Sequence record: NC_054918.1
DNA: 64,000 bases
Source of the DNA: Escherichia phage vB_EcoM_G4498
Reading direction: 5' to 3' (one strand)
Shown: one piece after another, positions 43,181 to 48,419 of the stretch
How positions within the stretch are numbered: the stretch's first letter is position 1
How the letters are laid out: the number at the start of each line of letters is the position of its first letter
Notes under the pieces: model-generated
Told to the model about the DNA's origin: nothing
The model's database searches: none
Seen by the model: only the letters and a program-made list of their open reading frames with translations
Position numbers and translations under genes: made by a program

Positions 43181-45445
43181 TCATAATTTACAGGATGAAC
43201 AATCTTCAGCTTTTGGAGTTTCTATTTCATAATCATCAGTACCAGAACCATCGCGGGTATTATGATAATAGAAATTTTTTCCGCCAAAATACCAAAAATA
43301 CAAAAGGTCATCAATCATTATTGACATTGGAACCTTGCCTTTAGGGAAGATTTGGGGGTCATAGTATGTATTCGCCGAAGCTGATTGACAAACCCATTTC
43401 AGCATAATAGCTACTTGCGTAAGATAAGGTTTATTACCTTTCTTAGCTAATTTCCATGTATAATCATATAGGTCTATGTTATGTTCAATATTGGGCACGA
43501 CTTGATTAAAGGAACCCTCTTTTGATTCTTTAACAGAGACTGGTCCACGTGGAGGCTCGATACCGTTTGTACTGTTAGAAACTTGGGAAGATGACTCACA
43601 TGGCATAAGTGCTGATAGTGTGCTATTACGGATGCCAAAGAGCTTAAGGTCTTCCCGCAGCGACGACCAGTCACAAACGTATTTTGGAGCTGCGATTTGG
43701 TCAATCTTTTTATTGTACCAGTCGATAGGTAATTCGCCTCGAGACCAACGAGTGTCTGAATAATATTCGCAAGGTCCTTTTTCTTTGGCGAGCTTAATGG
43801 ATGCTTTAATGAGTCCATACTGTAATCTCTCAAATAGTTCATGTGTTAAATCGTTAGCATCTTCATAAGAAGCAAAGTTACTTGCCAGCCAAGCTGCATA
43901 GTTGGTAACACCTACACCGAGGTTACGACGCTTTTTAGCTTTTTCTGCTTCAGGAACTGGATATCCTTGGTAATCCAAAAGATTATCAAGAGCACGAACT
44001 TGAACTTCTGCCAATTCATTAATTTTATCTTGGTCTTGCCAGTCAAAATTATCTAGTACGAATGCAGAGAGAGTACACAATCCAATTTCAGCATCAGGAC
44101 TATTCACATCATTTGTTGGAATAGCAATTTCACAGCACAAGTTACTCTGACGAATAGGTGCCTTTTCACGAATAAACGGAGTATAGTTATTCGTATTATC
44201 AATGAACTGTACATAAATTCTTGCTGTTCCTGAACGTTCAGTCATGAGCAATTCAAATAGTTCACGGGCTTTAATACGCTTTTTACGAATATTAGGGTCT
44301 TTTTCTGCTGCTTCGTATAATTCACGGAAACGGTCTTGGTCTTTAAAATAAGAATAATAAAGCTCTCCACCCATTTCATGCGGACTGAACAAAGTAATGT
44401 AATCGTTCTTTCCGAATCGTTCCATCATCAAATCATTCAGTTGAACACCATAATCCATATGACGAATGCGGTTTTCTTCTACGCCTTTGTTATTTTTCAA
44501 AACGAGAAGATTTTCAACTTCCAAATGCCAAATAGGATAATAAGCAGTAGCAGCGCCGCCACGAATTCCACCCTGTGAACATGATTTAACTGCAGTCTGA
44601 AAATGTTTCCAAAAAGGAATAACACCAGTATGGCGTACTTCACCCATGCCAATCTTAGAACCTTCGGCACGAATCATACCAACGTTAATACCAATTCCAG
44701 CGCGTTTAGAGATATATTCAACAATCGAAGCGGAAGCCTTATTGATAGACTTCAGCGAATCACCTGCCTCAATAACAACACATGAACTAAACTGTCGAGT
44801 CGGAGTACGACAACCAGCCATAATAGGAGTTGGTAATGAAATCTGTCGAGTAGATACTGCTTCATAAAAACGAATAACATGTTTTAATCTATCAACAGGT
44901 TCATCTTGATGCAATGCCATTCCAATAGTCATAAATGCAAACTGCGGAGTTTCATAAATTTGACCAGTGGTTTTATCTTTAACGAGATATTTTTCTTTTA
45001 ATTGCATCGCCCCGGAATAAGTAAATTCCATATCCCGTTCGTGCTTAATTTTTGATTCTAAAAATGTAATTTCTTCTGCTGAATATTTTGACAACAATTC
45101 AGGGTCATATTTACCTTCATTTACACAGTAAGAAATATGGTCAATAAATGAACGCGGTTCATACTGCCCATAAACATGCTTACGAAGAGCGAACATTAGA
45201 CAACGTGCAGCTACATATTGATAATCAGGCTCTTCAACCGAAATAGAATTCGCAGCGGCCTTAATGACAATAGTCTGAATATCATCAGTTGTCATTCCAT
45301 CACGGAGATAAGATTTAATATTTTCATATAATTCATAAGGATCTACTGATGTTCCCTCAGCTGCCCAAGATAAAACTTTAATAATTTTTTGTGGGTCAAA
45401 GCTCTGAGAAACACCACTACTTTTGATAACATTAATTAATTGCAT
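43181..45445 (-). CDS. nrdA: ribonucleotide reductase large subunit
   Basis: 754 aa, N-terminal ATP-cone, catalytic core, C-terminal CxxC tail (CSSCKL). Confidence 0.95.
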   Translation of the reverse strand: MQLINVIKSSGVSQSFDPQKIIKVLSWAAEGTSVDPYELYENIKSYLRDGMTTDDIQTIVIKAAANSISVEEPDYQYVAARCLMFALRKHVYGQYEPRSFIDHISYCVNEGKYDPELLSKYSAEEITFLESKIKHERDMEFTYSGAMQLKEKYLVKDKTTGQIYETPQFAFMTIGMALHQDEPVDRLKHVIRFYEAVSTRQISLPTPIMAGCRTPTRQFSSCVVIEAGDSLKSINKASASIVEYISKRAGIGINVGMIRAEGSKIGMGEVRHTGVIPFWKHFQTAVKSCSQGGIRGGAATAYYPIWHLEVENLLVLKNNKGVEENRIRHMDYGVQLNDLMMERFGKNDYITLFSPHEMGGELYYSYFKDQDRFRELYEAAEKDPNIRKKRIKARELFELLMTERSGTARIYVQFIDNTNNYTPFIREKAPIRQSNLCCEIAIPTNDVNSPDAEIGLCTLSAFVLDNFDWQDQDKINELAEVQVRALDNLLDYQGYPVPEAEKAKKRRNLGVGVTNYAAWLASNFASYEDANDLTHELFERLQYGLIKASIKLAKEKGPCEYYSDTRWSRGELPIDWYNKKIDQIAAPKYVCDWSSLREDLKLFGIRNSTLSALMPCESSSQVSNSTNGIEPPRGPVSVKESKEGSFNQVVPNIEHNIDLYDYTWKLAKKGNKPYLTQVAIMLKWVCQSASANTYYDPQIFPKGKVPMSIMIDDLLYFWYFGGKNFYYHNTRDGSGTDDYEIETPKAEDCSSCKL

Positions 45446-45762
45446 AAGTCCTCAACTTGAAAATCGTCTTTAAACAATCGGTTAACTATATGAGCTATTA
45501 TATCACCATGACACGGCTTTGGTTTACATGTGCATCCTAGCCTCATTCCACGTAAAGGCTCTAAATGTGCTTTAGTTATTTCTCCGGATTTAATTCGACG
45601 TATAAAATCTTTTTTGAATAATTCAATGGCAGCCTCCCGGCTGCCAGCATCTTTACCGACGTAATTTCCCCAAAATGTACCACGGTGAATATTAACATCA
45701 AAGTCGGATTTGTATTTATTCACTACCCGACATAGACGGCCCGCGCGGTGATAATTCGGCAT
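45436..45762 (-). CDS. hypothetical Cys/His-motif protein (position of T4 nrdA.1/nrdA.2)
   Basis: 108 aa; motif [12 protein letters not shown]; ATG start. Confidence 0.55.
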
Positions 45763-45979
45763 ATTGTTTTTCCGTTAAAACAGTAATATCGTAGTAACAG
45801 TCAGAAGAAGTTTTAACTGTGGAAATTTTATTATCAAAATACTCACGAGTCATTTTATGAGTATAATATTTTTTGCCATAAATGATAATAGGCTGATTTG
45901 GTCCTGGAACTTCTAGCTCACTTGGATTAGGAAGTGTAAAAAGAACTACACCAGAAGTATCTTTAAATCGTAAAATCAT
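45716..45979 (-). CDS. hypothetical protein
   Basis: 87 aa, ATG start; 47-nt out-of-frame overlap with downstream ORF. Confidence 0.5.
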
Positions 45980-46836
45980 ATTGCCATTTTCCCTTTAATT
46001 GCTGGATGCGATTCATAATTTTCAAGGATAAAATCTTTCGGTTTCATGTATTCAGTTAACCAGTAAAGCTGTGTTTCGGTGTCACAATTTCCAAACTCTA
46101 TAGGCCAATCAATTTTAAGTTCACATAGTTCTTTAGGCTCACGACGTAAAATTTCTTTACATTGCTCAGTATGATTCATATAGATGTGAGTATTACCACC
46201 AGAAAATATCAAATCTCCTGGGATAAGATTACACATCTTAGCCACAATATGCGTCAAGGCAGCGTACGAGGCAATGTTGAATGGCAATCCCAAGAAAACA
46301 TCTACACTTCTTTGGTACCATTGTAAATCAAGATAACCATTACGCACATTAAACTGATAGAACATATGACAGGGCGGTAATGCCATTTGATTGATTTCAG
46401 CTGGATTCCATGCTGAAACGATTTGACGTCGATCAGTTGGTAATTTTTTAATACGATCAATAGTTTCAACTAATTGATCCACACCGCCGAAATCACGCCA
46501 TTGTTTACCGTATATAGGACCAAGTTCACCACTATGATATCCTAGGTCTTTAGCCTGGTTTTCATAGTTATCGTCCCAAATAGTTTTACCTTGAATAAGA
46601 CTACCATGTGTGCGAAGACGTAAATCATTAACATTGGTAGAACCGGAAATAAACCATAGAAGCTCAGCAATGCATGCATTCCACGCAAGCTTCTTAGTTG
46701 TTACCGCAGGAAAACCTTTAGTTAAATCCCAACGTAATTTAGTACCGAACAAAGCAATTGTTCCTGTGCCTGTTCGGTCATCGGTTTCATAGCCATTTTC
46801 AAAAATGTCTTTAATTAAATCTTGGTATTGTTTCAT
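45976..46836 (-). CDS. td: thymidylate synthase (uninterrupted)
   Basis: 286 aa continuous; catalytic Cys in [12 protein letters not shown]; no intron. Confidence 0.95.
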
Positions 46837-46881
46837 TTAGTACCTTATATAAATTATAATACATTTTATGAAGCTAAATAA

Positions 46882-47229
46882 TCAATACGGTTTAGCATCA
46901 AATTTTCTCTCAATTTCAGGCGTGAAATATAATTCTTTACCGCGTTTGGAAAAGCGACCAATAATATGATAATTATTCTCATCAAACGTGATATTACCAA
47001 TATCCATAGCTTTCAACCAAATATCGATATTTCTATCCAGCTTTATGTCAAAATTCCAATACGGAGAACTATTACCGAAAATACTGCAAGCGGATTCAGT
47101 GAAACAACTGCTATAAATCTTGTCTTTAGGAACTACTAATTGATAGACACCTTTAATAAACTGAGGACCCTGCCACTTTGGCTGTTTCGTGTCTTTTTCT
47201 AATAGAATAGGGTAATAATTAAAATTCAT
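46882..47229 (-). CDS. hypothetical protein inserted between frd and td
   Basis: 115 aa, ATG start, no recognisable motif; occupies a ~410 bp interval separating frd and td. Confidence 0.6.
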   Translation of the reverse strand: MNFNYYPILLEKDTKQPKWQGPQFIKGVYQLVVPKDKIYSSCFTESACSIFGNSSPYWNFDIKLDRNIDIWLKAMDIGNITFDENNYHIIGRFSKRGKELYFTPEIERKFDAKPY

Positions 47230-47248
47230 ATTTCCGCCACGCGTTATT

Positions 47249-48075
<827 letters not shown>

Positions 48076-48086
48076 ATTGCCTCCTA

Positions 48087-48419
48087 TTAAAAAGGATCAG
48101 TAACATATCCGCTAGCTTTAATCATTTTAATTAACGTTAACATTCCTTTGTTAACTGCTCGTGAGATTTCATCAAAAACTTCATCACTAAAAAGTTCTAA
48201 CACGCCCTTCTGAACTTTTAATTTACAGCCAACAATTTCGTCATCTCCTATAGTAAATTCGCTTCCGCCAATTCCGCCGAAAAACTTAATTACGCCAGTT
48301 AACTGTCTTCCACGAGAATATGGGTCGTGTGATAAAGTAATATGAGTCACCCCAGGTACAGTTTTAAATTGGCAGCGGATGTTTACTTGAGCAATTCCAG
48401 TTACATGAATGTCAGACAT
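48087..48419 (-). CDS. hypothetical protein (frd.2 position)
   Basis: 110 aa, ATG start. Confidence 0.55.
   Translation of the reverse strand: MSDIHVTGIAQVNIRCQFKTVPGVTHITLSHDPYSRGRQLTGVIKFFGGIGGSEFTIGDDEIVGCKLKVQKGVLELFSDEVFDEISRAVNKGMLTLIKMIKASGYVTDPF

Follow-up and report, generated by a model that had tools for sequence, protein, structure and literature searches.

The frd–td Junction in T4 and in the Analyzed DNA

In the T4 phage, the genes encoding dihydrofolate reductase (DHFR; frd) and thymidylate synthase (TS; td) reportedly meet in an ATGA overlap, described by Purohit and Mathews in the 1980s. The original prediction had described this overlap correctly; in the T4 genome (NC_000866), frd ends at position 145109 and td starts at position 145112, giving a 4-nt ATGA overlap with no gene in between. 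The td gene of T4 also carries a group I intron together with I-TevI. We analyzed a 64-kb stretch of DNA (the window), which is ~100% identical to the Shigella phage JK23 (Tequatrovirus), and compared its frd/td pair with that of T4. Both pairs share the same flanking genes, order, and strand, as well as the same TATAAATGA at the frd end. In contrast to T4, the frd and td genes of the window are separated by 416 bp containing an additional gene, here termed X, and td is uninterrupted. The T4-type junction is the minority arrangement, being seen also in the RB69 phage.

The three genes all lie on the minus strand of the window. X (nt. 46882–47229) has an ATG start codon and encodes a 115 a.a. 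product (MNFNYYPILLEKDTKQPKWQGPQF...), with frd (nt. 47249–47830, 193 a.a.) directly upstream and td (nt. 45976–46836, 286 a.a., with neither a group I intron nor I-TevI) downstream. The gap from the td start to the frd stop (nt. 46837–47248) spans 412 bp and is composed of a 19-nt frd–X spacer (nt. 47230–47248; AATAACGCGTGGCGGAAAT) with a weak GGA Shine–Dalgarno-like element, the 348-nt open reading frame (ORF), and a 45-nt AT-rich X–td spacer (nt. 46837–46881; 15.6% GC), which includes the td Shine–Dalgarno element AAGG. The ORF listing of the window thus agrees with the original prediction of a 115 a.a. ORF between frd and td. This ORF is extra relative to T4, as that prediction also stated.

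The 2-kb region around X matches the JK23 phage at 100% and hundreds of other T-even genomes at 97–99%. The X protein itself is 100% identical to JK23_00231 (QEG05270.1), which is labeled a hypothetical protein in the JK23 record.

X Is a Protein-Coding Gene under Purifying Selection

With homologues conserved in 587 phage records via tblastn, X lies far beyond a chance ORF. In a comparison of the window with the F2 phage, a divergent member of Tequatrovirus, the X genes differ by 30 synonymous changes and 11 non-synonymous ones (dN/dS 0.055). For the same two phages, the dN/dS of frd is higher (0.20) and that of td close to that of X (0.076). Two X genes from metagenomic contigs gave a dN/dS of 0.13. 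The X protein also diverges more slowly than DHFR; from the window to L016, a metagenomic T4-like contig, dN amounts to 0.27 for X and 0.47 for frd. X is, therefore, a genuine protein-coding gene under strong purifying selection. In base composition, X (33% GC, 31% GC3) is not distinctive from its neighbors (37–38% and 24–28%, respectively).

Hundreds of genomes already have this gene annotated, and with its family catalogued as PHROG 1928, it is an ordinary conserved hypothetical gene; as it stands, the finding is an ordinary one and matters little.

Occupants of the frd–td Interval across T4-like Phages

The tblastn matches to X comprised 234 records at 99% identity or above, 113 at 95–99%, 14 at 90–95%, and 226 at <60%. 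At 90% identity or above, X is found in ~361 phage records, including the T2, RB7, RB18, and RB51 phages. Within Tequatrovirus, X directly follows frd in both T2 and the divergent F2 phage. Across other genera and contigs, all contexts examined have an X homologue (21–66% identity) immediately after frd, including the ZX14 (Kanagawavirus), PM2 (Mosugukvirus), KP17 (Jiaodavirus), S16 (Gelderlandvirus), and P545 (Marfavirus) phages, the phage record MN095771.1 and two metagenomic T4-like contigs (L010–L012), and two further metagenomic T4-like contigs closer to Tequatrovirus (L016 and L017). In almost all examined contexts, the start of X overlaps the frd stop and the stop of X overlaps the start of the next gene, as is characteristic of operons with translational coupling. 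The frd–X spacer of the window is absent in most other genera, where the overlap of the X start with the frd stop takes its place.

In many X-bearing phages, X is immediately followed by a second gene of 102–134 a.a., here termed Y. Alignments of X and Y revealed common invariant residues (W19, G91, K95, and G97) and a further set of near-invariant ones (L9, G27, Y29, F93, and F102), and Y also matches PHROG 1928 (E 8e-33). Given these aligned residues and the shared family match, X and Y are tandem paralogues. A third gene, Z, encodes a 68 a.a. product unrelated to X (PHROG 9550, function unassigned) and is the alternative occupant of the interval; like Y, it is also often found downstream of X. 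It is present in ~135 Tequatrovirus and Dhakavirus records, with its start and stop codons overlapping frd and td, respectively, and was located at L013:3098-3304 (fPS-2), L009:3148-3354, and L016:4670-4879. Homologues of Z (~43% identical) also occur in the unrelated Phapecoctavirus myophages, and Z accordingly looks more mobile than X.

The interval holds X alone in the window, T2, and Jiaodavirus, both X and Y in Kanagawavirus, Mosugukvirus, and Gelderlandvirus, and no gene in T4 and RB69 (Mosigvirus). In the RB49 phage, it is occupied by unrelated small ORFs, including one of 89 a.a. that is not a member of the X family. An HMM search of all ORFs in the 64-kb window matched X itself and no second family member, and the X-family HMM gave no match in the T4 genome at 1–50 kb and 139–148 kb, or in the frd regions of RB69 and RB49. 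In the SHFML-11 and a48 phages (L014 and L015), X is found together with the td intron and I-TevI, such that X and the td intron occur independently of each other.

Probable Loss of X in the T4 Lineage

The state of the junction was surveyed in 60 records, spread across the 513 that match the T4 junction. Contiguous T4-type junctions were observed in four of the 60 and junctions split by X in 40, while the other 16 matched over the frd half only, being either Z-type records, or X-type records in which the td 5′ end is divergent. Among Tequatrovirus-like records, the X state is thus the majority (~70%), followed by Z (~25%), with the empty T4-type junction the rarest (~5–7%). The original prediction had taken X for a lineage-specific insertion, and this part did not stand: most Tequatrovirus records have X, which occupies the same slot in other genera, and the comparison of synteny across the junction that had been proposed as a check marks it as the normal resident in most T4-like phages.

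The interval in the window is bounded by two copies of a 9-bp direct repeat, TAAATGAAA, both on the minus strand, of which the upstream copy (nt. 47247–47255) spans the frd stop codon and the downstream copy (nt. 46831–46839) spans the td start codon. Removal of the 416 bp between the two copies from the window yields exactly the ATGA junction of T4 (and RB69). Additionally, the T4 frd is closer to that of the window (95.7% nucleotide identity) than is the frd of the X-bearing F2 phage (87.4%), which places T4 among the X-bearing phages at this locus. Taken with the majority X state and the X homologues that follow frd elsewhere, the repeat-defined ends and this nesting favor a loss, and X was most likely lost in the T4 lineage via a 416-bp deletion between the TAAATGAAA repeats, as judged from sequence comparison.

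The same repeat can be read the other way, as the target-site duplication of a recent insertion of X into an ancestral T4-like frd/td overlap. Such an event would fit the perfect 9-bp repeat flanking the 416-bp extra segment, as well as the spacers and promoter-like sequence of its own that X has here, unlike the overlaps seen elsewhere. We nevertheless consider it very unlikely, given that X is found in this very place in all the other genera and metagenomic contigs examined (at the 21–66% identity noted above), that the divergent F2 phage has X while the more similar T4 does not, that the segment is without an associated transposase, integrase, or nuclease, and that the GC and GC3 content of X is similar to that of its neighbors. 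The upstream repeat can also be explained as a vestige of an overlapping X start, since at the frd stop the L016 contig reads ...GCGATGAATTTT and the window ...AAATGAAATAACGCGTGGCGGAAATATGAATTTT (ATGAAT vs. ATGAAA).

Two observations count toward a gain and temper the polarity given above. The RB69 junction is likewise empty, which leaves as a possible alternative that the ancestor of Tequatrovirus and Mosigvirus was empty and that X was re-acquired later. Secondly, similarity in X is incongruent with that in frd: the window and L016 share 63% identity in X but only 48% in frd, with the frd and td of L016 being closer to those of Kanagawavirus and Marfavirus (61–63% and 80–90%). This incongruence points to a mosaic operon or to an old exchange inside it, leaving room for ancient lateral exchange of X as opposed to purely vertical descent. 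Loss in the T4 lineage remains our preferred reading. T4, the reference phage, is atypical at the frd–td junction, and its famous overlap is probably a secondary deletion, such that expectations centered on T4 are misleading at this locus.

We also noted a two-codon mini-ORF (ATG AAA TAA; nt. 47249–47257, minus strand) overlapping the frd stop codon; the upstream TAAATGAAA copy likewise reads as this vestigial mini-ORF. The mini-ORF looks like the fossil of a start codon that overlapped the frd stop, either that of X, as found elsewhere, or that of td, as found in T4. In the F2 phage (L018:894-1511), the sequence at the stop codon of frd differs by 2 nt (TATAAAAATGAAATAG vs. TATAAATGAAATAA), which lengthens DHFR by 12 residues, such that frd overlaps the start of X.

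The X Protein Family and Its Predicted Fold

The X protein matched the profile HMM of PHROG 1928, a family of unassigned function, with an E-value of 1e-35 (residues 4–111 on positions 2–125 of the 126-position profile), and carries its signature of W19, G27-x-Y29, G91-R-F-x-K95-x-G97, and F102, together with a position just after frd. Members of this family include JK23_00231 (QEG05270.1), XUQ82819.1 of T2, RB32ORF229c of RB51, gp155 and gp154 of S16, and gp191 and gp192 of PM2; the window X is simply another copy of this family.

This was the sole family match, in keeping with the earlier statement that X bears no recognizable motif. Pfam returned no match to the window X at an E-value of up to 10, neither NCBIfam nor PADLOC gave a match for X, and sequence and profile searches of the PDB with X gave nothing better than an E-value of 0.34; Pfam, NCBIfam, and PADLOC were similarly negative for Y and Z. 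Full-text literature searches on the junction, the locus tags, and the PHROG number were without a relevant result. When the X-family profile was run with HMMER against a full set of 1.84 billion representative proteins, it gave 46 matches, all but one of 95–148 a.a., and every match with a named source was a hypothetical protein of a T4-like Enterobacterales phage (Yersinia, Providencia, Morganella, and Proteus phages). By these sequence matches, X belongs to a small family that is confined to T4-like phages.

The AlphaFold2 model of X, built from a 63-sequence alignment, was of high confidence (pLDDT 92.6, pTM 0.85), with strands at residues 6–12, 27–34, 38–40, 48–50, and 62–64, a helix at 68–76, and further strands at 80–82, 86–96, and 99–104. 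X is thus predicted to fold into a small beta-barrel with a single helix, OB-like at best, which we treat as a lead and not as a classification; the OB-fold nucleic-acid-binding domains considered for comparison were HIN-200, the RecO N-domain, the Teb1/RPA OB domain, and S1. A Foldseek search of BFVD with the model recovered uncharacterized members of the same family only, and the model has no characterized structural neighbor. The protein is small (~13 kDa) and the family mildly basic (median pI 8.6), with R92 and K95 as its only invariant polar residues, accompanied by adjacent invariant aromatics (W19, Y29, and F93). The alignment of the X family contains no conserved His or Cys.

Homing Endonuclease Labels

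Several records of the BASEL collection (MZ501066, MZ501050, and MZ501113) label X as a 'putative homing endonuclease', and X does resemble the T-even seg and mob genes and I-TevI in being small, optional, wedged between conserved genes, and variable among close relatives. Were X a free-standing homing endonuclease, or the remnant of one, it would have spread by cutting frd/td junctions lacking X, which would suit its patchy presence within Tequatrovirus and its location beside the target gene of I-TevI. The protein even contains a superficial 'GVY...IYS' string resembling the GIY-(10)-YIG motif; however, the second half of this pseudo-motif is not conserved in the family. Across 63 X-family members, Pfam at an E-value of up to 1 detected no GIY-YIG, HNH, LAGLIDADG, or other nuclease domain. 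A GIY-YIG endonuclease of the I-TevI or Seg kind was rejected on this lack of a Pfam match and an hhalign probability of 1.6% for the X-family profile against I-TevI, as was an HNH endonuclease of the Mob kind on the same lack, a probability of 0.14% against MobE, and the missing conserved His or Cys.

Other properties also set X apart from seg, mob, and I-TevI. At 115 a.a., it is much smaller than the T4 homing endonucleases compared (MobE, 141 a.a.; I-TevI, 245 a.a.), its model is an all-beta barrel, and it is fixed across genera under purifying selection, with a vertical-looking conservation (~30% identity in the same slot) that is unlike homing genes. A homing origin for X is thus extremely unlikely. 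In the ADUt and JLBYU24 records, X is instead labeled 'dihydrofolate reductase'. Both this and the homing endonuclease label are unsupported and should not be propagated.

Putative Role of X

While we are highly confident in the identity and evolutionary history of X given above, its role is a more tentative matter. The best explanation overall, which we advance with low confidence, is that X is a long-standing resident of the frd–td operon with a putative binding or adaptor role. The ancestral frd–td interval apparently carried X, often with its tandem paralogue Y and the small gene Z, and different lineages would have retained different subsets of the three. X would be transcribed with DHFR and TS and, in most genera, be translationally coupled to both. 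As a protein, it might act as a non-enzymatic binder, either an adaptor or a regulator contacting nucleic acid, a nucleotide, or a partner enzyme, and in this way support the thymidylate and dNTP supply of the phage, helpful but dispensable.

The mechanistic part of this proposal, in which X is expressed together with DHFR and TS and binds or serves as an adaptor without being an enzyme, is possible but doubtful. It is suggested by the small size of X, the lack of catalytic-looking conserved residues, and the invariant Arg and Lys plus aromatics on the barrel. The hints toward binding of ssDNA, RNA, or oligosaccharide on the barrel face are indirect only, namely the basic median pI and the invariant R92 and K95 with their aromatics. 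X, absent from T4 and RB69, has most likely been lost repeatedly and is dispensable in that sense, and since T4, RB69, and phages with Z alone make dTMP without X, any role in thymidylate or dNTP supply must be non-essential. Synteny alone can also reflect hitch-hiking of X in a tightly packed operon.

X could otherwise be, as the original prediction suggested, a counter-defense or host-takeover protein riding in the early/middle frd–td transcription unit, which would bind a host factor or its signal, for example, that of a nucleotide-depleting or nucleotide-sensing immune system. A small protein with no known domain, dispensable in T4 and RB69 and with a fold lacking characterized neighbors, is compatible with such a role, as are the variability of the slot, which X, Y, and Z fill in at least five ways, the X/Y tandem duplication, which is common for binder or inhibitor genes, and the invariant Arg, Lys, and aromatics, which could form a ligand pocket. 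However, X is under strong purifying selection with no sign of diversifying evolution, and it keeps one position, with translational coupling to metabolic genes, in every genus and contig examined, features that suit a classic arms-race gene less well. The BFVD search, moreover, gave only the family of X itself, and no likeness in sequence or fold to a characterized anti-defense protein, such as nucleotide sponges or nuclease and restriction inhibitors, was found. On balance, we regard a counter-defense role as unlikely.

A more speculative proposal, to which we give little weight, is that X and Y represent an unrecognized class of small ligand-binding beta-barrels belonging to the thymidylate module. 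They might form a non-catalytic part of the T-even dNTP-synthesizing complex, tethering DHFR and TS to the replication machinery, or act as binders that shield the phage nucleotide supply from nucleotide-targeting host defenses. If true, either variant would explain the lasting attachment of the gene to frd in every T4-like lineage examined.

Returning to X as an operon resident with a putative binding role, the residual interest in this gene lies in its strict synteny with frd, its conservation, which is tighter than that of DHFR, and its confidently predicted fold without characterized relatives. With these features, X is reasonably suited to a small experimental study in the T2 phage, which carries it.

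Promoter-like Sequences and RNA Signals

The promoter-like sequence described upstream of td in the original prediction is present in the X–td spacer, as a consensus match only. It consists of a MotA-box-like GCTTCA (nt. 46874–46869, minus strand) followed by 10 nt and TATAAT (nt. 46858–46853, minus strand) or, alternatively, by 12 nt and TAATTT. In the F2 phage, ~30 bp of the spacer are missing, the promoter-like sequence among them. A loose MotA-box pattern (GCTTNA-N10-13-TANNNT) occurs 32 times in the window, the site upstream of td included, against 19 ± 4 expected, a modest enrichment, while a generic scan for sigma-70 promoters and terminators remained at background level (12 found vs. 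11.7 expected). No Rfam family was detected in the spacers (the best match, at an E-value of 0.11, was to a fly lncRNA), and the RNA fold was not unusual, with a z-score of −1.3.

Elsewhere in the window, MotA-like sites were noted on the minus strand at nt. 16688, 30251, 35951, 50749, and 55082. Several have a perfect TATAAT at a 12–13-nt spacing, and these minus-strand sites are likely genuine middle promoters, as read from the sequence.

Neighboring Genes

Downstream of td, the window encodes homologues of nrdA.1 (DUF4326; nt. 45436–45762, minus strand) and nrdA.2 (DUF5496; nt. 45716–45979, minus strand), which overlap each other by 47 nt. The nrdA.2 homologue also overlaps the td stop by 4 nt; the arrangement is like that in T4, apart from a 20-nt gap that follows td there. 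In the teqdroes record, the nrdA.2 homologue is mislabeled as a 'putative prohead core scaffold protein' and the frd.1-like ORF as a 'putative portal vertex of the head'.

On the other side of the operon, two further ORFs lie between frd.1 and frd (nt. 47830–48075 and nt. 48087–48419, both on the minus strand), one encoding 81 a.a. (PHROG 3183) and one encoding 110 a.a. (DUF7247/PHROG 3566). Both are absent from T4, where frd.1 leads straight to frd, such that, with X, there are three genes around frd in the window that T4 lacks.
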